From positions 2,976,001-3,016,469 of the forward strand of contig CP089279.1 in the NCBI GenBank assembly GCA_023920165.1: a stretch of DNA of 40,469 nucleotides, written 5' to 3'. The notes below the pieces were generated by a model. The model was not told the origin of the DNA and made no database searches. It saw only the letters and a list, made by a program, of their open reading frames with translations. Origin of the DNA: Curvularia clavata. Its lineage: Eukaryota. This document shows positions 1-40,469 of the stretch, in pieces. Position numbers and translations under genes: made by a program. Every line of letters starts with the position of its first letter. Within the stretch, counting starts at the first letter, position 1.

Positions 1-2391
1 TGGGATGCCCAGTTGCTACGCCGCGCTGGCAACCTAATGGGCGCCGAGTCGCGACACAAGGGCGCCAGCGTCCTCCTGGGTCCTACTGTCAACATGCAGC
101 GTAGCCCCCTCGGTGGCAGAGGCTTCGAATCCTTCTCAGAAGACCCAGTCCTGGCCGGCATATGTGCCGCTGCCGTCATCAATGGCATTCAGGATACGGG
201 GGTGCAAGCTGCCATCAAGCACTTTGTCGCCAACGACCAGGAGCACGAGCGCATGGCCGTCAATTCCATTGTTACACAGCGTGCCCTCCGCGAGATCTAC
301 CTATTGCCATTCCAGATTGCAGTTCGGGACTCCAATCCTGCCTCGTTCATGACTTCGTACAACAAGGTCAATGGCACCCACGTCAGTGAGGACAGCAAAG
401 TCCTCAAGGACATTCTCAGGCATGAATGGGGCTGGCACGGTCTAGTCATGAGCGACTGGTGAGCGAGTGTGGTCATTGTAAGGGCCTAGCTAATGACCTC
501 ACAGGTATGGCACCTATTCCACCTCAGAAGCAGTCAACGCAGGCTTGGATCTTGAGATGCCAGGCCCCACAAGATGGCGAGGACAGCTTCTTCACCACGC
601 CCTTGTTGCGAAGAAGGTCAGGCCCGATGTCATTGATGAGCGCGTTCGTGCTGTCTTGACTTGCATCCAACGCTCCATCGCGGCTGGTATACCGGAAAAT
701 GCTCCCGAAGAAGAGCGGGATACTCCAGAGACCGCTGCTCTGCTGCGTGACATTGCCAGCCAGGGCATCGTCTTGATGAAGAATGAACAGGATGTCCTTC
801 CATTCAAAAGAGATAAGAAGGTCTGCAAACTCACGTAATTGGCTACGCGCTTGCAGTACTGACAACCATTACCAAGGTTCTTGTCATCGGGCCCAACGCA
901 AAAACTGCCGTATTTTCAGGAGGTGGTTCGGCCTCCTTGAGGCCATACTATGCTGTTACTCCCTTGGACGGGATATCGCACAAGGCCGAGAATGTCGAGT
1001 ACACCGTAGGCTGCCACGCACACAAGATGCTTCCAGTCCTCGGTCCTCGTATGCGTACGGCTGAAGGACGAACCGGTGTTACATTCAGAGCCTTTACGGC
1101 CCCACCTTCAGATACTGATCGCAGAGCGATCGACCTGATCAATCTGGTTGATACCGATATGTATTTCGCTGACTATTACCACCCAGAGATAACAGAGGAT
1201 CTGTGGTGGGGCGAGATCGAGGGTTTTTTCACTCCAGACGAGTCCGGAGAGTTCGAGTTCGGCCTTGCCGTCTTCGGGACAGCGAACCTCTACGTCGATG
1301 GTGAGCACGTAATTGACAACGAGACAAAACAGCGAGGTGGTGGTACGTTCTTCAATGTCGGCACTATAGAGGAGACAGGCACGAAATTCCTCGAGGCCGG
1401 CAGATCCTATGAGATCTTAGTGTCTTTCGCCAGCGGTGCAGCATCTAAAGTCGAGGGAGCAGACGGCGTGGTATCGTTCGGGGGTGGAGGTGTCCGCATC
1501 GGCGGTGCAAAGCTCTTGAACGCCGATGAAGAGATCGCTGAGTCGGCTCGCCTCGCCATGAGCGTCGAACAAGTCGTACTCTGCGTCGGTTTGAACGCAG
1601 ACTTTGAGCAGGAGGGTCACGATCGCTTACACATGAAGCTCCCTGGCCGTACGGATGATTTGATCGCGGCAGTCGCCGCCGCCAACCCTCGAACCGTCGT
1701 GGTGGTACAGTCCGGCACACCAGTAAGCATGCCGTGGGCCGATACGGTGGCAGGCATCATGCAAACCTGGTACGGGGGTAACGAGACTGGCAACGCTATT
1801 GCTGACGTACTCTTTGGAGATGTCAATCCGTCAGGCAAGCTGCCCCTATCGTTCCCCATCTGTGTCGAAGACAACCCGGCTTACCTACACTATCGATCGG
1901 AGCGCGGACGCGTTCTCTACGGGGAAGATATCTACGTCGGCTACCGATATTATGAGACGGTCAAGAAGCCTGTCCTTTGGCCTTTTGGTTGGGGTCTGTC
2001 GTATACCAGCTTCAAACTCTCCAACGTCGACTGCGAGCAGGGCATACGCGGCGGGAAGAATGTGATTTCGGTTACGCTATCTGTCACTAATACGGGGCCA
2101 GTGGACGGCGCTGAGGTCGTGCAGATGTACATCGCACAGCGGTCCTCGTCCATCAAGCGACCTCAAAAGGAGCTGAAGGGCTTCACGAAGGTCTTTGTAC
2201 CAGCTAAGGCCACGAAGGCAGTACAAGTCATCGTCGAGAGGAAATACGCGACGAGCTTTTGGGACGAGGAGCGTAATCAGTGGATCGAGGAGGCCGATAC
2301 CTACGATGTCTTCATGGGCACGAGTAGCGCTGATGCCCGTCTGTCGGCTACGTTCAAAGTCAAAGCGACAAGCTGGTGGTCTGGGCTATGA
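1..2391 (+). CDS. GH3 beta-glucosidase with PA14 insertion and C-terminal Fn3-like domain (5' end lies before the window)
   Basis: Motifs [41 protein letters not shown], nucleophile region [39 protein letters not shown] introns 459-504 and 821-876 join three ORF pieces in frame. Confidence 0.95.
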
Positions 2392-6089: not shown

Positions 6090-7050
6090 GGTCAGAGGCC
6101 TGCGAGTTAGTGAGGCACTGCTGTCTGCTAACGGTAATCCGATATTAGCTCGGTTCAACACAGCATGGCTATCGCACAACAAGAGGTAGAGCTTGGAAAG
6201 CATGTAGAGGGGATTATGTGTGCGGCGATAGATCAGCCCTACCCCTGATCTCCTCTGAGAGTCCACCGAGAACACCTTCCAATCAAGCCAGAGGTTTACT
6301 CTGTGCTTACATCCTGACCATTTTAAGGGCATAACAACAATGGGATAGGCCTCGCTTGGCTCAAACAGGTGTTTAGTCGCTTACCGTCTCATAGTGCTCG
6401 ATGGCCACGGCTCTCCTGTGATGATAGACTTTGTCAACAACTGCGATCAGAACAAGATGCTTCTGGCTGTACTTCCTCCTCATTTGGCCCACACGCTGCA
6501 GCCAATAACCAGATTGATGTTCAATCGTGTATCGACTAAGTCCTTTCAGGCAACAGTTCGCTGGAAATAAAGAGCCCGTCGCAGAATGTAGACAAGAATG
6601 AAATTGATATGGATCTGGAAATGAATAGCCGCTCACTCCACCATATCTCAATTGAGAACGCGCTTCTCCACTTTGAGAATATGCGTCTTCAAGAAACTCA
6701 TAAAGTTCAAGAGATTTACAAGAATAAAAGCAAAGCTATTCAGTTCTAAACTCGCAAGCACTATCGCGGCGGGGCTGAGCTCTACTCTCCTAGTGCAGGA
6801 GAGAAAGCATGCTCTGATAGGAGGGCAAGACGCAAGAGACCAAGGGCAGAAGGACTCAAAATGGCGGAAATATCGAGATTCGGGCATACTAGTAAGCTGA
6901 ATAATGAGAAGATGCCTTAGGAGAGGCGTAAGCAATAGGCGAGGGAGAAGGCAGAGCGAGACTAGGTTAGGATCAAGAAAGCTGGAGAAACAGCCAAACG
7001 CAAGGCTCAGAAAGAACATAGTAGGCTATTGCGCAACCCTGAAAAGCCAA
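6090..7050 (+). mobile_element. Degenerate pogo/Fot1 (Tc1-mariner, DDE_1) transposase relic
   Basis: Manual translation of about 6345-6525 gives IGLAWLKQVF...LIVLDGHGS.VMIDFVNNCDQNKMLLAVLPPHLAHTLQP, the DDE_1 signature. A K/E/R-rich C-terminal tail with stops follows at about 6830-7020. Frameshifted, boundaries approximate, TIRs not found. Confidence 0.75.
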
Positions 7051-30733: not shown

Positions 30734-32049
30734 TGTCAGGACCTGGTCCAAATTGGGACATGTTGGTCCAATTCCCTCCTTCTTCACGCTAGTTAGTTAG
30801 CTAGGGCTTACCTAAGGCTATAAAGCCTCCACGATCGCTAGAGGTGCTCGATAGCGATTCGTCTCGTGAATATATGGCTGTTAAAGTATAGTTCTCTCTT
30901 ATCTATCTCGTGCTGTACTTTCACGCTACTAACAGTCTAATATTCGAATCGCTCTCCTTAAGTACACCTACGAGATGTTAGAGAGAGCTATGCCGAATCT
31001 AGGTAGTTGCCAAACTTGGAGCCGCCCAAAGTTAACTCGAAATATGGTAGTAGGGGACTTATAGCCTACTCTAACTAGAGACTTAATCTAGCTATCTTTA
31101 AGTAAACTATCCGAGCCTGCCGTTACGGAGGCAGATTAGGCTGGACTGGTATAGAGAAGCTTAATTTAGGGCAGCCCAGCTCGACTTGAACTACCTCAGA
31201 CTACTATTGCTTAATAGCTAGACGAACTGCGCGCTTGGAGGTAACGAGCGCTTAATGAGTAAGAACTGAAACGTCTCTAGGAAATTAAGCGTTAGTTTGA
31301 CTAAGGTGACACAACAGTACTGACAGAGGATCTATATGAACTACACTATATAGTGGGGATACAACTAGAACTAAACGTGGGAGCTCTACGACTAGAAAAA
31401 CTAATATAGTTTATAAACCGCGATTGTGTTGAGTATAATTGCTAGAAACGCAAATATAAAGCAATATTTAGGAGAAGCCCTAAAACGTTCTAAATAGAGG
31501 TAGTTAAGATTAATTTTAGACTTAGGTATATTACTGACCTCCTACGCTCTATATAGGACGCCTATTATTACGACTACTATAGAAAAGATACAAATTGGAT
31601 ACCTATATGGCTAGACCTGAAGACTATAATAGTGGATTTACTAGAACTACTAGAATAATAGAAGCTTAAAGCCTACTAAGCTCTTAAATATATTAGATAG
31701 GACTAGTCTTAGGACCTAAACGACCTATTAGCCAAATTAGATATACTTTAGTCTGAATTAGATAATTCCTACTTAGAAGAGTAGAGAGTAAAAGACTTTA
31801 TAGGCGCTTTAATAATAATAATATAGAAAGAGTTGCTTTTACTTAAACTAGATTAAAGAAGTATAATCTTAGACCTAAACGCGCGAGCGCGACTTATCTA
31901 GAATAGAATAAAAAGAGAGAAGCCTAGTAGCGCTAAAATAACGCAGAATAAGTAAGCTAAGAGCGGTATACTACCAAAGAATATAAGAAAGTATAAAAAA
32001 ACTCTAAAAAAATAAAGACAGAACTCTACAGATATAAAAGATTTATACA
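30734..32049 (+). mobile_element. RIP-mutated LTR retrotransposon 5' part (209-bp LTR 30734-30942 plus degenerate gag-like region, probably Ty3/Gypsy)
   Basis: LTR is near-identical to 32705-32913. It is followed by a stop-riddled TpA-rich gag-like sequence. Superfamily assignment is tentative. Confidence 0.65.
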
Positions 32050-32564
32050 TGTAAGAAAGTTGTAGGTAGGTAAATAGGATAACTTTCTTAATTAACTAAA
32101 ATAGCTTATTAAGAGGTGAGAAATAGATATAAAATATCTAGTAAGTGGTCAAAATGTAGGTAATAAGTAGATATATTGGAGCTAGGTTCTCAAATAACTA
32201 TAGACAGTCAGCGTCTTTTATAGACAACTAACGGAGATAGGCGCTGCGTCTATTTCCTATCTTGATTTCAAATCAACTACTAGACTAAAGTATAATTAGA
32301 TTAGTTTTTTATCTTTTTTATGATTTATAAGATTTTATTTTAGACTAAAATCTTTATAATCTAGCTTGCTAAGCAAGCTAGAGCTAAAATATAGAATAAT
32401 GACGTCTTATATCTAGATAAGAAAGCGGAGAAATACTTAAAATACTCGGCAGTTAATAGCTACATCAAATGTAGAGCTACAAGAACAAAAACAACTAATT
32501 TGAATAGCTAATCTTTTATAGAATAATACTAAAATATAATATAATAATTATATTATAATTTACA
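32050..32564 (-). repeat. Putative 3' LTR of the Copia element
   Basis: A minus-strand polypurine tract AAGGGAG (32567-32573) directly precedes TGTAAA. The other end is TGTAAG at 32050 on +, giving TGTAA...TTACA termini. Confidence 0.55.
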
Positions 32565-32704
32565 CACTCCCTTAATTATTATATTATTATAATCTTATCA
32601 TTTAGCTTAATATACTAATGGTAAGTAATATAATTATATATCTAATAAGCTTAATATTCTTAATTAGATATTTTCATTAGACTAAATTTGCTTTTAGATA
32701 ATAG

Positions 32705-32913
32705 TGTCAGGACCTGGTCCAAATTGGGACATGTTGGTCCAATTCCCTCCTTCTTCACGCTAGTTAGTCAGCTAGGGCTTACCTAAGGCTATAAAGCCTC
32801 CACGATCGCTAGAGGTGCTCGATAGCGATTCGTCTCGTGAATACATGGCTGTTAAAGCATAGTTCTCTCTCATCTATCTCGTGCTGTACCTTCACGCCAC
32901 TAACAGTCTAACA
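32705..32913 (+). mobile_element. Solo LTR (209 bp) with 5-bp target-site duplication AATAG
   Basis: TG...CA ends, AATAG at 32700-32704 and 32914-32918, same family as 30734-30942. Confidence 0.9.
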
Positions 32914-33096
32914 AATAGCTTAATATACTAAATATCTAATTTTCAAAATAGTCTATTTATACTTTTATAATCGTAGCGATTATAAATAGTAATATTGTCT
33001 ATATAGCTATAATAGCTAATATAGGTCTAAATTATATTAGTTGTTGTAACTAATACTTAGCGCATTTAGGGGTTGAAAACCTAAATACGAATATAT

Positions 33097-33127
<31 letters not shown>

Positions 33128-33136
33128 AATATAGAT

Positions 33137-34938
33137 CTAGTTTATATTTACTAGATGCAGTCTAGTATTAAAGCTATTTAGCTTTTCTATACTAGTTGGT
33201 TTAGTTAATATATCTGCTAGTATTGTTTTAGTATTTTCATATACTAAATTAATATTATTTTCTTGTAGATTTTCTCTTACAAAATGGTAAGTTATATCTA
33301 CATGTTTTGTTCTAGCGTGATATATTGGATTTTTAGCTAATTCTATAGCGCTCTGGCTATCTGTTTTTATAATATTTGTAATATTAAATATATTACTAAT
33401 ATCTTGTATAGAATTATAGCTAAATAGTTCTTTAAGAAAGTTATTCAAATATAGACTTTCTTTAGTTGCTTCTTTTAAAGCTATATATTCAGCTTCAGCG
33501 CTTGAAATAGCTACTACTTTCTGAAGCTTTGAAATCCAGCTTATAGCTATATTTTTATTTTGCCAGTTATTTAAATTATTTTGCAAAATAAATAAATTTC
33601 CACTAGTGGATTTTCTAGTGTCTAAATCACCCCCCCAATCTGAATCACTAATTCCAATAAGATTGATTGTTTTATTTATATATTTTTGAGATTCAGTTTG
33701 TAGAGTAAGATTTAATCCATAGTTTTTAGTTTTTAATAAATAGCTAAATATATTATTTAGATATTTATAGTGCTCTAAGCTAGGATTACTCATATATCTA
33801 GCTAAATAATTAACACTAAATGCTAAATCCGGCCGAGTAAATATAGTTAAATATATTAAACTGCCGATTTCTTTTTGGAAATCTTTAGTTAATTTAGTAT
33901 TAATTTCTTCTTGGTTTTTAGCTAGTTTACTACCTATAGCTATAGGTATATCTTTTGGCTTATTTAGTAGCTTATTATACTTAAACAGTATTTTATTTAT
34001 AAAGCTACGCTGAGTAATTACAATAGATTTCTTAGATCTATCTCTTATAATTTCTACACCAAGAAATTCTCTAATTTCTCCCAAATTAGTTATTTCTAAT
34101 TTAGATATATCAGAAATTTCTTTATATAAATCGTCTATTAGATATTTAGTTTTTGCAAAAACTAGAATATCATCGACGTGTGTAGCTAAAATAACTGCTT
34201 TTTTATTATGGATATAAATACTATTGTCTATTTTTAGTGGAGTAAAATCTAGCTGTTTTAGTATATTTGCTAGAAATAATTGCCACTGTCTAGACGCTTG
34301 TTTTAATCCATATAGTGCTTTATTTAGTCTACAAACTATATTATCATAGTTTTTGGTAGCTATTATATTTTGAATATATTCAATTAAAGCTTTGTCTGTT
34401 ATAGTTTTTAAAGCTTGATGTAATATATATTCTTCTAATCCAATTGGTAGTTGGACTAGTGTATTTTTATTATCTAATTCTGCATTGGGAAAAGCTTGTT
34501 TTACATCCCAAGTATAAATTTCCCAATCTAAATAGCAGAATATAGATAATAATAGTCTAATAATACTAGGCTTACTAGTAGAAGCAAAGGTTTCTTTATA
34601 ATTTATATTATATTGTTGTAAAAATCCTTTTGCTACCCATCTAGCTTTATATTTTTTAATAGTATTATCAAGATTTAGCTTTTTATTTAAAACCCAGCGG
34701 CCTTTTATCATATTATTTTTAGTAGCTGGCTTTTGTATTAAATCCCATGTATTAGATTTAATTAAATTGTCTATTTCTAGCTTCATAGCTTCTAGATATA
34801 GATTTTTATCAGATCTAGTTAATACTTCTTTATAGCTTTTTGGCTCAACTAAGCTAGTATTTATAGAAGTATTTAATATATTATATAATATAGAGTTATT
34901 ATATAGACTTTTCCAATCAGCTCTAGATTTGATATTAT
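33137..34938 (-). mobile_element. Ty1/Copia pol fragment: reverse transcriptase (RVT_2) plus RNase H, reading frame open
   Basis: EPKSYKE, KGRWV, KARWVAKGF.Q, DVKQAF, RLNKALYGLKQASRQW, HVDD, RPDLAF, SDSDWGGD..TRKSTSG, SSAEAEY, HARTKHVDI.YHFVRE, ADILTKP. Gag, protease and integrase are absent. Confidence 0.95.
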
Positions 34939-34950
34939 TAGACTGGTAAA

Positions 34951-35235
34951 TGGGCTGGGGCAGGGCTGGGGCAGGGCTGCTAAGAGTTGGGTAGGGGTAG
35001 GGCTGGGTCAGATGACTAAGCAACCCAGCCCTGCCCCTACCCAACTCTTGGCTAACCCAGCCCTACCCCAGCCCGCTTATTAAGCAACCCAGCCCTGCCC
35101 CTACCCAACTCTTGGCATTTAAGTTGGGTAGGGGCAGGGCTGAGTCAGTCAAGAGTTAGGTAGGGGCAGGGCTGGGTTGCTTAATAAGCGGGCTGGGGTA
35201 GGGCTAGGTTGCTTAGTACTAGGTTATGCTGGGTC
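34951..35235. repeat. G-rich subterminal repeats in alternating orientation (AAGAGTTGGGTAGGGGCAGGGCTGGGT unit)
   Basis: Inverted pairs about 34982-35008/35023-35049 and about 35055-35114/35150-35210. Each unit has four G-tracts. Confidence 0.9.
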
Positions 35236-35423
35236 TTAGTTATTAGATATATATATACTCCGTATATATCAAAGACTTATCACGCATAATTATCACAGTA
35301 GTAAATTAAAAATTAAGAACTTATAAAACTTTCATTTAACTTCTAGCATATAGCTAGTTCTCAATTATAGCTATCCCTCAATCATAAAAGCCATCAGTAC
35401 TTGATACTCCATCATAAAAGCCC

Positions 35424-36392
35424 TCAGTACTTAATACCACCCATACCAAGCCTATTAAGATAGTGCTTAACAAGATCCCCATCCTTCTTCTAAATAGTAA
35501 CTCTCTTAGCATAGATAGCGTTCATATTACAGTCTAGATCCGTTAGCAGCTATAATTAATATCTGTAATAATATAACATACCCTCAAGAAATCCAACCAA
35601 AAAATACTCAGCAGCCTCTTAAAGACCTTCCAACGCCTCTCTCTAGATACATAGAGGGTGTTGCGGATATACGTCTCCCATAATCTCCCTAACAAGTTTT
35701 ACAAATCGAGTCCTTAGAATAAGCAGATCAGTAGACTTCTAGAATCTTTTAATCTCTTTTAGTACAACAGCTAGTAATTATTAGTCGCTTACTGTAATAA
35801 ATAACTATAATAAACTTACTACCAGACTTAAACCTACGCCTCTTAGAGGCGCCAGACGTAGATAGTTGAGCACCAGGCGGTGCAGGAGGGCCGGACTCGT
35901 CTTCCTCGCTGCTTTCCGACTCTTAATCCTCATTATCGGGCTTAGGCGTGGGCGGCCTATAATTAACTGGCTGCTTACGAGCGGTTTTGCCACCTACACC
36001 ATAGAACATAGTGCCAGTCCTACTATTAGTTAGCTATTACTTGTAATAAATTACCGTGATAAACGTACGCAAAAGATACAAGATAGCCACTAGTCAAGAT
36101 ACGGGGCGGAGAGGGATAATCGTAAGTAGTAGTCCTAGCATTTATTAGCCATTTCCTATAATAAATTACTATAATAAACTTACGGATTTAGTTGGCCACC
36201 TTCGGCAGAAAAAGTAGGATTGCCAGTCATCTAAGCTCCCAAAACCTCAAATTCGTCTTCAAGAGCTTCTAATTCGCGAGGTGACAGCAGCTAAGACACC
36301 TGTCTTTCAGGCGACGGGAGCACATTTAACCGTTCTACCATCTCCTCAAACGACTCATCGTCTAGCCCCCCCACCTCGTCTACTGCTAACAT
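35424..36392 (-). pseudogene. Histone H3-like gene with long N-terminal extension, RIP-inactivated in this copy
   Basis: Five exons (introns 36135-36183, 36023-36068, 35771-35819, 35534-35581) splice to 777 nt without frameshift: ART...GGKTARKQP...KRRRFKSGTVVLKEIKRF*KSTDLLILRTRFVKLVREIMGDVYPQHPLCI*REALEGL*EAAEYFLVGFLEDCNMNAIYAKRVTI*KKDGDLV. The four histone-fold stops lie at Gln positions of fungal H3. Confidence 0.9.
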
Positions 36393-36916
36393 AGTACGTG
36401 ATAAATCTCTGTAATAACTAGTAGGGTTGAGTTGAGAAATTTGGCGTTAGGCTAGGAAAGTTAGATTTAGATTAAGAGAATTGGTGGACAAATACTTAGC
36501 TATAGAGTAGTTAAGAATTTTAGGGATATATAAGTAGGTAAAGATAAAGGTAAAGGTGAGTGCACAGATCACCCAGAGTCTTGCTAAAGGTCTGCGAGAT
36601 AGTTAGCAAGAAATCGCCATAACTCAACGAAGCAGTAATTAAATACTATAATAACTAGCTCATTAGATAGAGCTACTCCAGGGCTTTCAAATAAGACTAA
36701 AATCAAAGCACTCCAACTTTTATTATCCAAGATATTGGCTATATGAAAGATGTTGTTCGCTAGCCCAACGCTAGCGCGAAATCCAGAGCGCACGGACCCC
36801 TAATTACCTTAATAGATAGACTATCACCAAACTTCCTACTCTCTCTTAGCAACCATCCCCCCCCTCCCTACCCCCACCATACTAGACGTTATATCAGTAC
36901 TTTATCACAGTCAACA

Positions 36917-38113
36917 ATGCCGCGCACGCCAGAAATCAAGCGCGAGTCTACGACAGAGGCTGATAGCAACGTACCTAAGGGTCTAGCACCTCCACGCGTT
37001 GCCCAAATACCCAAGGACTTTACTAAGCAGAAGTAGGCAGATCTTACTAAAATAATAATCCCAGTCTATTATCACAGTAAATACTAACGTTAGTAAGGCT
37101 TTAAAAATAAGCAAAACAAAATCAATTTTATCATTACGCAACGTAGATCTAGAGGTTCCCAAAAGAGTCGTCCAACTAGTCTGCGAATCCAATATCAAGG
37201 TCAGCTTAGTAACACAGCTCGAGCTATTGCACAGAGAGATCTCGCCGCGTCACGTACCAAGGAAGAAGCCGCTCTCCAACGCGCCAAAGATACTAACCGC
37301 GCTACTCGGGCGAAATTTCTCAAGTCACTCAAAGAGAAAGAATAGTATAAGACCGCCAGAGAGGATAAGAAGAATAGAATTATAAAGAGCCATCTTAAAG
37401 AGCATGAATCCAAGCGCTTTAAAGAAAAGCAAAATAGTAAGTTATCACAGTCTTTTATTACAGACATCTACTAACAGTTATTAGCTAATTGGATGGCGTT
37501 TGCTCTCCAAGCTGTGCACGCGAAATGGTCCAAGATCCAGAATGAGATCGACAAAAGACGGCATCAGCTTATTCTCCAGACTACCTCTAGCGACGCCCCG
37601 TCTAATACCTCTACTAAGAGGTTACGCGTTTCTGCTCGTCTCTATAGTCGAAAGGGGGTTATTAACTCACTTATACGCAAAGAATATCTTCGAGAATTGG
37701 CTAAGCTAAACAACAACGCCTTTAAGAGCGAGCAAGCACGAGATAAATAGCTCAAGTTTTACAAGAACCTTTCTCCCAAAAAAAAAGAACTTGCTATAGA
37801 TAGTTCCTAGCAGTAAGTTTATCACAGTTTATTATCACATTCAAGAACTAACTAGTATAGACAAGAAAAGCCTACTTCTATTCTCAACCAGTTTGATCCA
37901 GATACGCGTCTTAAGGATAATAAGCCATATATCGAAGGCTATGATAGTAACAAGTATGAAGAAGAGATTAATAACGAGGATAAGATTATAGACGAGAATG
38001 AGGATGGCTATAGTAGTAACGATAGCTTTTTGGCTCCAGAGGGGGCTGATAGTGCTAAGATAGAGGAGGCTGAGGATCAAGACGAAGAGGCTGAAGAAGA
38101 GAAGTCTAAGTAG
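36917..38113 (+). pseudogene. Unknown protein with basic coiled-coil region and acidic C-terminal tail, RIP-mutated
   Basis: ATG 36917, introns about 37033-37093 (donor uncertain), 37437-37484 and 37813-37860. K/E/R-rich helix (RTKEEAALQRAKDTNRATRAKFLKSLKEKE) and tail EEEINNEDKIIDENEDG...EEAEDQDEEAEEEKSK*. Confidence 0.65.
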
Positions 38114-38410
38114 TGCTGGCTGTCCAAGCATATCTCTGACAATGCTCTAGTAGTTAGGGTTTAGAGTATTATGCCAGGGTTTATCCCAGCCAATAATCAC
38201 AGTATAACCCCTGTGTCGATCCAAACTTTCTCTTATATAAAACCTACTTCAGACATATGTCAAACAACACTAGTATTTTAGACAATCTTAGCTATGCTAG
38301 AAGCTAGAGGACTTAAAACTTCCTACCATATCCAGTTTTCCACAGATAATATTTGTCCATCTAGTAACTTTAATTTATCACAGTTATTTATCACAGGTAC
38401 AATCTTCACA

Positions 38411-40299
38411 ATGGCTAAGCCTTCTACAGAACCGCCAGATATCCTTGCGCATCTCAAGATAAATACTCCACACCAAGACAAAGGTGGTCTTAAAGTCACA
38501 CTTACACTCATCCAGTATCCAGTACTTGAAAATAATAGCAATAAAGAGAACAAAGCAATTATTTCAAACTAGAAGGAGTAGTGGAATAAAACACCATAAG
38601 CCCGAGATCCTTCGAAGCCAGTTCCACACTAGGGCTCTTCTTGTCGTACGAGCCAAATCTGGGCAAACTTTGGAAAGGCTGCAGAGATCCTAACTGGCCG
38701 TCCATATATCTTCTGCTCGAACTGCAGTTATATACTCGCGCACCCATCAGCTGGAAATATTAGTACAAAGCATCTTCATAGACATCGTCAAACCCAAACT
38801 TACCAGCTTATCTCTTCGCCTATACACAACAAGCTATCGAACTCACTCCGCCAAAGTATCCCACCACCAATAAATATTAATCCTCGCGCAATACCAGCCT
38901 ACTCAACTAAGACATACGAACAAGAACTAGTAAGAGTAGTAGTTAATAACTACTAGAGCTTCCGAACACTTAAGCGGCCATCATTTCAACGATTTCTCCA
39001 GTTTCTCCAGCCCAACGCTGTAATTATTAGCCGTTATAAATTCAAGCTAGCGTTTAAGTTACAATTTAAGAAGGCTTCAGCTAAGCTTCTCAATGATCTT
39101 AGCCAAGGAACAAAAATATCACTTGCATTAGATAGTTAGGCTTCAAGTAACCATCTTAGTTTCCTTACAATCAAAGGTTACTATATCAATACTCAATAGC
39201 AACTCAAAGAAAAACTTTTAGATTTTATACCGATCCATAGGAGACATACTAGAGCTTCAATAGCAGATAAAGTTCTAAAACTTCTTTCTAGAAGTGAACT
39301 CCAAAAAAAATTGCTATCCATTACTTGCGATAATGCCAGCAATAATAGCACTCTTACGCAGTCTCTTCAGCAAGGTCTACAACAACTTAGTATAAGCTAG
39401 AGTCCAAGTAAAAACACTATTCCCTACTTAGCCCATATTATCAACCTCGTTGTCCAGGATATTATCCAGCACTTAAGGCTGTCAGCTTCTACCAAGTTAG
39501 ATAATATACAAGATTTACAGAGACAACAGATCAATAAAGTAGATGCCAACATCTCAGTCCCCAATTCACTTCGCAAGGGAAGAATTTTTTATCACAGTTA
39601 TTTATCACATACTAACTACAATATAGATTAGAGCAATCTGCATTATAGTTGACTCATCTCCTCAGCGATACGAACAGTTTCTCGCAACACAACGGGATCT
39701 ACCACCAAAAAAACGCCTTAGTGTTATCCGTGATGTTAGAACACGATAGAACTCGACATATAATATGTGTAAGCGCGCAGTCAAGCTTCGGCAATATATC
39801 AATAAATGGCTCAAAGATAAAATCGCGTTAAGGGTTCCTATCCATACCAAAAACCTCTCAGAGGCCGACAACAATACTGATATTGATTCTCAGGATCTTA
39901 AGAGACTACGACTATCTGCACAAGAATAGTCGCATCTTAAGATAGTTACTAAAATACTTAGCCATTTCAAGACTACAACAATATCTCTAAGTCAGAGTTA
40001 AAAACCTCAAATACCATATATCTAGCTCATGTATAATCAGCTTTTTAATTTTCTTAATTAGATGGAGGTTGATTTAGAAGAAGACTCAGAGAATAGCAAC
40101 TGGCCACAAGTAGTAAGAGCTACGGCGGCGAAAGAGAGAGCAAAGTTAAGTAAATACTACTCGAAAACTAATAAAGAGCGTAGCTTCTTATTCAACTGCG
40201 CGACGATTCTTGATCCAACGCAAAAGCTTACAGCCTACGAGGTATTATCACAGATATTTATCACAGATAGATACTAATAGAAGATATAGAATAAGATAT
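38411..40299 (+). pseudogene. hAT transposase (BED-like zinc finger plus RNaseH-fold DDE core), RIP-mutated and 3'-truncated
   Basis: SQIWANF...CSNC...HLHRH, ISLALDS*, ITCDNASNN (about 39320), AHIINLVVQ (39431), SSPQR, DVRTR*NST (about 39732), ILDP (40206). Introns about 39578-39626 and from 40242. No C-terminal dimerisation domain before the telomere. Confidence 0.92.
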
Positions 40300-40415
40300 G
40301 GGGTTAGGGTAGGGTTAGGGGGTAGGGTTAGGGTTAGGGTTAGGGTTAGGGTTAGGGTTAGGGTTAGGGTTAGGGTTAGGGTTAGGGTTAGGGTTAGGGT
40401 TAGGGTTAGGTTAGG
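40300..40415 (+). repeat. Telomeric (TTAGGG)n tract
   Basis: Tandem TTAGGG with the G-rich strand running toward the end. The first units are imperfect (TAGGG, TTAGGGGG). Confidence 0.97.
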
Positions 40416-40469
40416 AGGTGCTGTCACACGAGTATGGAAGTCGTTCTTTAACCTTAGCAATACGTAACC
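40416..40469 (+). other. Untrimmed Oxford Nanopore native barcode and adapter (artefact)
   Basis: AGGTGCTG + 24-mer TCACACGAGTATGGAAGTCGTTCT + TTAACCTT + AGCAATACGTAAC matches the native-barcode flank layout and ligation adapter. The 24-mer matches barcode 13 as I recall it. Confidence 0.93.

Follow-up and report, generated by a model that had tools for sequence, protein, structure and literature searches.

A nine-base word paired at an exact 13-nt period recurs through the introns, leaders and ends of a hAT transposon that carries a histone H3-like gene

The right end of a 40,469-nt stretch of Curvularia clavata DNA (assembly GCA_023920165.1, contig CP089279.1, positions 2,976,001 to 3,016,469 of the forward strand; hereafter the window) contains one copy of a three-gene DNA transposon. 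A gene for a histone H3-like protein on the minus strand is followed by a central open reading frame (ORF) and a hAT transposase gene on the plus strand, and the same gene order is found in the related elements L007, L036 and L003 from metagenome contigs. Judged by its sequence, the window element is a copy of a known Pleosporales hAT transposon, bearing damage from repeat-induced point mutation (RIP) and cut off by the telomere. Stop codons of the RIP type (TAG or TAA) are present in all three of its reading frames. An initial annotation of this DNA had proposed that the word TTATCACAG, arranged as the 22-bp pair TTATCACAG-N4-TTATCACAG with a 13-nt period, marks every intron and 5' leader of the three genes, and its view of an element-wide signal common to all three is borne out here.

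The exact word occurs ten times in the window, always on the plus strand and always between positions 35290 and 40266, where shuffled sequences lead one to expect 0.33 copies and none of 100 shuffles reached ten. When up to three mismatches in total were allowed, 12 pairs at 13-nt spacing were detected in the window and none within positions 1-34942, compared to a mean of 0.005 such pairs in 200 shuffles of the element. With up to four mismatches the element has 15 pairs and the other 35 kb a single one (at 6416, minus strand, four mismatches). The pairs are not restricted to the few hundred bases at the ends of the element but are spread throughout it, one per ~110-1200 bp, and the coordinates previously assigned to the motif copies all hold. 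The weaker copies on the minus strand represent C-to-T changes. All 185 differences between the window and contigs of the public run X1 have A in the window against G in the read, and the degenerate minus-strand copies therefore fit RIP acting on one strand.

All nine introns of the window element contain the pair with zero to four mismatches, zero to two of which are not of the RIP type, and further pairs lie directly before all three ATGs (Table 1), both as first reported. The introns share one compact build, which comprises a 5' splice site, the pair, a CTAAC-type branch point, YAG and little else; their lengths are uniform (45-51 nt), and the pair lies 4-13 nt past the 5' splice site. Seven of the nine introns are bridged by exact joins in contigs of the public runs X1 and X4, and one further contig departs at the donor site of an eighth (both runs carry one organism label, their RNA nature is presumed, and their contigs cannot show transcript starts or ends). 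The X4 contig that departs from the window at 40242 continues into a ..ETWEFQDKH.. translation resembling the next exon of P0009, a transposase homolog, while run X6, which behaves like DNA, contains no such intron joints. Homologous gene models skip all three central ORF introns and both transposase introns. The introns of the element are really spliced, H3-like intron 4, which no contig of runs X1 and X4 joins across, being placed by reading frame and homology. In the window copy, RIP has destroyed both splice sites of central ORF intron 1 (GT to AT, CAG to TAA), the L007 ortholog of which is likewise 45 nt long, and transposase intron 1 starts with GG.

The pair had also been described as absent from host introns, and this agrees with seven host intron candidates with strong splice signals (positions 1-30000), in which no pair was found and the best approximations have 7-10 mismatches; all 12 pairs at up to three mismatches lie in the element. 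As a separate observation, one X4 contig skips positions 37182-37259 and 37468-37670 and retains central ORF intron 2. At least the second skip has CT..AC ends, equivalent to GT..AG on the minus strand, which suggests a spliced antisense transcript across the central ORF.

Table 1. Features of the window element and placement of the motif pairs in the related element L007
Feature	Position	Strand	Basis or remark
Window: left terminal inverted repeat TAGACTGGTAAATGGG	34939..34954	+	matches termini of relatives
Window: G-rich terminal repeat block, GGGCTGGGGCAGGG type, ~32-nt units, both orientations, ~300 bp	34951..35240	.	direct and inverted repeats
Window: subterminal pair TTATCACGC-ATAA-TTATCACAG, pointing into element, antisense to H3-like gene	35277..35298	+	window scan
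Window: H3-like gene, 5 exons, RIP stop codons, histone fold of H3 type	35424..36392	-	reading frames, junction peptides
Window: H3-like intron 4, 48 nt, pair 35550-35571	35534..35581	-	reading frame and homology only
Window: H3-like intron 3, 49 nt, pair 35792-35813	35771..35819	-	X4 contig joins across
Window: H3-like intron 2, 49 nt, pair 36041-36062	36020..36068	-	X4 contig joins across
Window: H3-like intron 1, 49 nt, pair 36156-36177	36135..36183	-	X4 contig joins across
Window: H3-like leader pair, end 3 nt before ATG	36396..36417	-	window scan
Window: central ORF leader pair, end 6 nt before ATG	36889..36910	+	window scan
Window: central ORF gene, 4 exons, RIP stop codons	36917..38164	+	homologs P0005, P0006, P0007
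Window: central ORF intron 1, 45 nt, pair 37056-37077	37052..37096	+	X1 contig joins across; gap in homolog gene models
Window: central ORF intron 2, 48 nt, pair 37442-37463	37437..37484	+	X1 contig joins across
Window: central ORF intron 3, 48 nt, pair 37819-37840	37813..37860	+	X1 contig joins across, GT..AG ends
Window: three degenerate copies, from 5 nt after true central ORF stop, sense	38169..38202	+	window scan
Window: perfect transposase leader pair, end 14 nt before ATG	38375..38396	+	window scan
Window: hAT transposase gene, RIP stop codons, ends few codons past intron 2, dimerisation domain missing	38411..40305	+	homology
Window: degenerate antisense pair in transposase coding sequence, encodes ..AVIISRYKF..	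39018..39039	-	2 mismatches at matching site in L003, L007, L039
Window: transposase intron 1, 49 nt, pair 39589-39610	39578..39626	+	X4 contig joins across
Window: transposase intron 2, 48 nt, perfect pair 40245-40266	40242..40289	+	X4 contig departs at 5' splice site
Window: telomere repeats capping truncated element	40303..40411	+	perfect TTAGGG run 40328-40405
L007: pair just within left G-rich block, antisense to H3-like gene	277	+	
L007: pair in H3-like intron	758	-	
L007: pair in H3-like leader	1005	-	
L007: pairs in repeated ~200-bp promoter modules upstream of H3-like gene	1214, 1416	-	
L007: pair in central ORF leader	1602	+	
L007: pairs in three central ORF introns	1747, 2133, 2513	+	
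L007: pair directly past central ORF stop	2852	+	
L007: pair in transposase leader	3098	+	
L007: antisense pair within transposase coding sequence	3780	-	
L007: pairs in two transposase introns	4331, 4999	+	
L007: pairs just within right terminal block, antisense to transposase gene	5820, 5879	-	

The check for conservation in relatives that the initial annotation had proposed was carried out on metagenome elements without RIP damage. Metagenome contigs were scanned once for the perfect pair, a design that guarantees just one perfect pair per locus; at least 121 stretches were found, and 117 loci were taken further. Among these 117 listed loci, ten encode central ORF homologs and five of the ten a transposase as well, with 2-16 pairs per locus in the ten and 8-16 where the transposase is also encoded. 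Most of the other listed loci have a single pair or a simple 13-mer tandem repeat. After removal of duplicates there are at least seven elements free of RIP damage (L003, L007, L008, L020, L035, L036 and L039), of which L003 has 12, L007 16, L036 15 and L039 eight pairs at up to three mismatches. In eight non-redundant elements including the window copy, neighbouring motif matches on one strand (at most one mismatch each, within 40 nt) lie 13 nt apart in 43 cases, 26 nt in three and 39 nt in two, and at no other distance; the 13-nt spacing holds for 43 of 43 adjacent cases.

Orthologous introns were placed by exon homology, independently of the motif, and only rows with recognisable junction peptides were counted. 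In six elements whose proteins are merely ~35-60% identical, 28 of 31 such introns keep the pair at up to four mismatches. The three misses all concern the last H3-like intron, which lacks the pair in L007, L036 and L003 (three of three elements examined); the proposal of a pair in every intron is therefore true of the window but not of the family. In L008, the most divergent relative, one of five introns contains the pair, which leans to the variant TTATAACAG. Evidence that is independent of the DNA pattern scan comes from proteins. Sixteen of the 89 cluster representatives of the central ORF read at least seven residues into intron 2, and all 16 encode L-S-[QHR]-x-[FLV]-I-T, which is the translated pair with its 4-nt spacer.

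The spacer itself is variable, and spacer and flanks carry little information, which argues that selection acts on the two words and their distance and not on whole introns. The motif is under purifying selection, confined to the element and exact in its spacing, and it presents a clear example of intron sequence under strong selection beyond the splice signals. Since the pair is kept across distant relatives, something reads it. In five lineages (P0007, P0018, P0034, P0046 and P0055) central ORF intron 2 is moreover open in frame into the next exon, such that retention of the 48-nt intron would lengthen the protein by 16 residues (..LSQxFITxxYL..) instead of terminating it, an arrangement that may be fortuitous.

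A shared build could also have arisen by descent alone, with mini-introns that all go back to the copying of a single intron, as introners do, or that were homogenised by gene conversion, and with a motif that has no function of its own. The single template of all the introns (45-51 nt, with the order of signals described above) would fit such an origin, as would the two extra 5' introns of the same build in the window H3-like gene. Introners, including the introner-like elements of Dothideomycetes, are near-identical over their whole length and spread over many host genes. Like them, the introns analyzed here share sequence; unlike them, they have only 18 bases and the spacing in common and, except for one DUF3716 gene, occur only in the element. 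Conservation is limited to the two 9-mers and their distance and does not extend to the spacer or the rest of the intron, the code survives in orthologous introns across protein divergence of 50% and more, and introns are not the only sites of pairs, which are also found in leaders, a 3' flank, promoter modules, an exon and the ends. This conservation pattern contradicts a functionless descent, which we consider very improbable.

The placement of the pairs follows strict rules. L036 and L003 have the same plan as L007 (Table 1), and in these three elements, in which both ends are present, all left-end pairs are on the plus strand and all right-end pairs on the minus strand, so that they point inward and mirror each other. 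The end pairs adjoin the inner side of the G-rich terminal blocks, in antisense orientation relative to the gene next to them, a rule that the 35277 pair of the window obeys for the left end. L036 contains in addition a six-copy tandem array with a 13-nt period beside one end. Copies had been described downstream of two genes; those after the central ORF are indeed such, but the 35277 pair points inward and runs antisense to the H3-like gene. The motif had further been said to lie always on the sense strand within genes, which is correct for the non-coding sites but fails for a degenerate antisense pair in the transposase coding sequence. The codons of this exonic site (GTG ATA AC. AGC CGT TAT AAA) are identical in L003, L007 and L039 save one (ACT/ACA), although the proteins of these elements differ elsewhere. 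Upstream of the H3-like gene of L007, three tandem modules of ~200 bp (950-1460, minus strand) each contain a CCCACTTTT box, TCGCACAAT and one pair, and the promoter-module pairs are located ~270 and ~470 nt upstream of the H3-like ATG.

We favour, with a probability of roughly 45%, the reading that the pair is a DNA address label for a binder encoded by the element. TTATCACAG-N4-TTATCACAG would then be a cis-acting label on the DNA of the element, read by a two-headed sequence-specific protein or a dimer. The first candidate reader would be the hAT transposase through its N-terminal region with a BED-type zinc finger, a Cx2Cx17Hx3H pattern having been found near its N-terminus, and the second the central ORF protein. 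The initial annotation had listed the BED finger and a cargo protein among four possible readers without preferring any, and a DNA site for one of these two would fit best. The inward end copies might serve end recognition, like transposase-binding subterminal repeats, whereas the internal copies might concentrate the binder locally on the element that encodes it (recruitment in cis), exert feedback on its three genes, or do both. That the period is exact, that copies form tandem arrays, mirror each other at the ends and recur in promoter modules, and that one exonic copy is antisense all suggest a structured binder of duplex DNA. From these we infer that the pair is read as DNA, which proteins may read it and what their binding would do.

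Several results weigh against an address on DNA. The internal non-coding pairs are all on the sense strand of their gene (13 in the window, 11 in L007, eight in L036 and nine in L003), a strict rule that a pure DNA reading does not predict; we suggest that the antisense form would disturb introns of 45-51 nt, which is a possible reason for the bias. The G-rich 32-nt units at the ends form a second end repeat system that could be the true transposase site, and these units differ between elements, whereas the 9-mer does not. In L008, with an H3-like gene and a central ORF and no detectable transposase, pairs persist, if weak or variant. Pairs also occur away from any recognisable element, in sense orientation, in the single intron and the 3' flank of a DUF3716 gene. 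Finally, no known DNA-binding fold was found in the central ORF by Pfam, an AlphaFold2 model or PDB comparison.

Because the sense-strand rule is not predicted by a DNA-level reader, an RNA-level one is the chief rival, though in our estimate a rather unlikely one. The pair would then be a signal on pre-mRNAs and untranslated regions, through which an RNA-binding protein of the host or the element would co-regulate splicing, retention, export or decay, and which would mark the three transcripts as one regulon or as 'self'. The constant position of the pair shortly past the 5' splice site, the small uniform introns and their actual splicing fit this role, as does the DUF3716 gene, in which the same layout recurs (GTAAGT and then the pair in the intron, plus a pair in the 3' flank). 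The initial annotation had offered a splicing signal as one possibility, and the internal non-coding pairs conform to it. A splicing element would be sense and present in transcribed DNA only, and what was found includes end pairs that are antisense to their neighbouring genes and mirror one another, the conserved antisense pair in the transposase coding sequence, and the pairs far upstream in the L007 promoter modules. A purely splicing or RNA signal is therefore insufficient. Single-stranded RNA sites also less commonly show invariant spacing and tandem arrays with a 13-nt period. The RNA signal could be rescued by antisense transcripts that run inward, and one contig with CT..AC joints exists.

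The DUF3716 gene (L019 6850-8250, and L073) lies beside a Ty3-type retrotransposon and is the single outside gene with a pair among the 117 listed loci. One pair directly follows the 5' splice site of its only intron (68 nt), and a second is located ~260 nt past the stop codon. No part of the hAT element is recognisable on the L019 or L073 contigs, and a homolog search with the DUF3716 protein returned the protein itself only.

A site for a host transcription factor, for example a GATA factor reading TGATAA on the other strand, would make the pair a promoter or enhancer module tied to a host programme. The pairs that directly precede each of the three ATGs or lie in repeated promoter modules are in line with this, and so are the constancy of the 9-mer across elements with differing terminal repeats and the pairs of the DUF3716 gene. 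The GATA core is expected to be the most conserved part of such a site (HGATAR rule). Among 118 copies of the motif there are 14 departures at the base that faces the G of GATA and 15 at the neighbouring T, against only one and two at the A and C just outside the core, respectively. As the core varies and its flanks are nearly invariant, opposite to the HGATAR rule, the GATA factor named in the initial annotation is an unlikely reader. No pair at up to three mismatches is present in the 35 kb of host DNA in the window, and placement in introns with a strict strand bias is unexpected for an enhancer. We thus give a host factor in general a low probability.

The favoured reading, a DNA label bound by a protein of the element, has partial counterparts in other transposons. 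DNA transposons are known for repeated binding words near their ends; in hAT elements, subterminal repeats bound by the transposase include AAACGG of Ac and GTGGC of Hermes, the latter bound by BED domains. As in Ac and Hermes, a short word is repeated, mirrored beside both ends, and accompanied by a BED-like finger in the transposase. In contrast to their repeats, the motif described here forms a strict 13-nt pair, extends element-wide into introns, leaders and a 3' flank, keeps to the sense strand in genes, and coexists with a second, G-rich end system. A two-word code in nearly every intron, in every leader and in part of an exon goes beyond binding words near the ends, and we know of nothing comparable for any transposon. 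In En/Spm (the 12-bp motif of TnpA) and PIF/Harbinger (a Myb-like protein), an accessory protein binds repeats, couples recognition of the ends to control of the element's promoter and recruits the transposase. By analogy, the central ORF could have an accessory role of the TnpA or PIF/Harbinger type. These systems differ in belonging to other superfamilies and in having subterminal motifs that do not occupy every intron, and no DNA-binding fold was found in the central ORF.

The central ORF protein is a candidate reader or histone partner. Homologs identified include P0005 (64% identity), P0006 and P0007; by species, identities are 64% for a protein of Exserohilum turcica and 38% for one of Bipolaris sorokiniana. 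It matches no Pfam family, and its 89 matches among 1.84 billion cluster representatives are all internal to the family, many of them fragments; the family is found only with this element. The protein Atlas gave nothing useful for the central ORF. An AlphaFold2 model is all-helical with an acidic tail (predicted local distance difference test score 75.5, predicted template modelling score 0.46), and a comparison of the model with the PDB gave no match at E ≤0.001 (best E 3.7). An invariant GS.KGRPT stretch resembles an AT hook.

The family carries its own histone H3 variant, and it is conceivable that the element builds its own chromatin, with the central ORF protein or the transposase binding the pairs and guiding the H3-like histone to the element's own DNA. 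To carry such sites would then be the main reason why the mini-introns persist, those acquired by the captured histone gene included. We regard this elaboration as improbable. Marking of self DNA for H3-like deposition, as put forward in the initial annotation, is neither backed nor contradicted by the present results. The 22-bp pair provides a probe for the role of the central ORF, for self-regulation by the transposase and for targeting of the H3-like protein.

The element family is already in print, whereas the spread of the motif into introns and leaders is unprecedented for binding repeats of DNA transposons. The main text of Manning et al. 2013 (PMC3538342) describes a hAT transposon of Pyrenophora tritici-repentis, a major wheat pathogen, that carries an H3-like gene (H3L), is ~5.6 kb long, has terminal inverted repeats, and is present in near-identical, expressed copies with expressed sequence tags that reveal introns. 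The window element shares its three-gene plan, but it is RIP-damaged and truncated by the telomere. The same text describes a 2.3-kb short form with a chimeric protein. P0019, in which the central ORF's N-terminus is fused to the C-terminus of the transposase (..AKDILAIPIAQVGVERVF..), looks like this chimeric protein (PMC3538342). Neither 'repeat motif' nor '13-bp' occurs in that main text, and its mentions of an intron (in a figure legend) and of a binding site are unrelated to the motif.

In Pseudocercospora fijiensis and relatives, the text of Dhillon et al. 2019 (PMC6710886) reports a RIP-inactivated hAT element with an H3-like sequence in AT-rich blocks, which is ~9.5 kb long and has 20-bp terminal inverted repeats and an intron-less H3 retrocopy. 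Both this element and that of the window are RIP-inactivated hAT transposons carrying H3; the H3-like gene of the window has four introns and is not intron-less. The word 'motif' is absent from the text of PMC6710886. No description of the motif was found in the running text of openly accessible papers on hAT elements, subterminal repeats and H3-like transduplication, and the listed full-text matches to TTATCACAG are unrelated.

The genes of the window element were assigned by homology and reading frames. The transposase exons are 45-57% identical to P0008 and P0009, with the first exon at 57% to P0009 of Pyrenophora tritici-repentis. P0009 contains Dimer_Tnp_hAT (E = 1.5e-20), and the window gene stops before that domain; its own Pfam match is weak (hAT-like RNase-H, E = 0.0013, below the cut-off). 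The H3-like junction peptides are ..KSG|TVVLKEIKRF.. and ..FLE|DCNMNAIYAKRVTI.., and two ~33-nt units TACTGA.GGCTTTTATGAT.G lie at 35385-35450 on the minus strand, the first spanning the H3-like stop and the second after it. L008 and L026 are one contig in opposite orientation, on which a divergent pair of H3-like gene and central ORF is embedded in GC-rich DNA. Over 16 kb of L008 no transposase could be detected, and no G-rich end blocks were seen; the locus may be ancestral, or else a copy that was immobilised or domesticated.

The left terminal repeat TAGACTGGTAAATGGG differs from TAGGCTGGTAAATGGG at the left end of L036 by a single G-to-A change of the RIP type. TA(G/C)GCTGG(T/C)AAA opens both ends of L036 and L003 and the ends of L007/L006, and the termini of L003 and of L007/L006 closely resemble TAGGCTGGTAAATGGG as variants; with the right end of the window element lost to the telomere, the left repeat at 34939 alone is comparable with relatives. 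Terminal regions in this hAT family are blocks of ~100-300 bp made of G-rich, telomere-like units of ~32 nt, which are inverted between the ends and differ between elements. Such inverted blocks occur at both ends of L007, L036 and L003, and unit types GGGTTGGGGTT, GGGTAGGGTCGGGG and GGGCAGGGCTGGGG were noted in the window (34951-35240), L007 (1-264 and 6003-6095), L036 (172-432 and 6146-6423) and the ends of L003.

Within 40303-40469, at the right-hand limit of the window, TTAGGG repeats take over from the truncated transposase exon with a short overlap (GGG). The ~58 bases that close the window after the telomere repeats (AGGTGCTG, 24 nt, TTAACCTT, AGCAATACGTAACC) resemble an untrimmed Nanopore barcode and adapter; should this identification hold, the contig finishes at a genuine chromosome end, healed inside the element. 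Directly to the left of the element, positions 31000-34938 are AT-rich (24-36% GC) and probably represent older, RIP-degraded repeats, and an isolated TTATCATAG at 34341 is the sole near-motif in this region.

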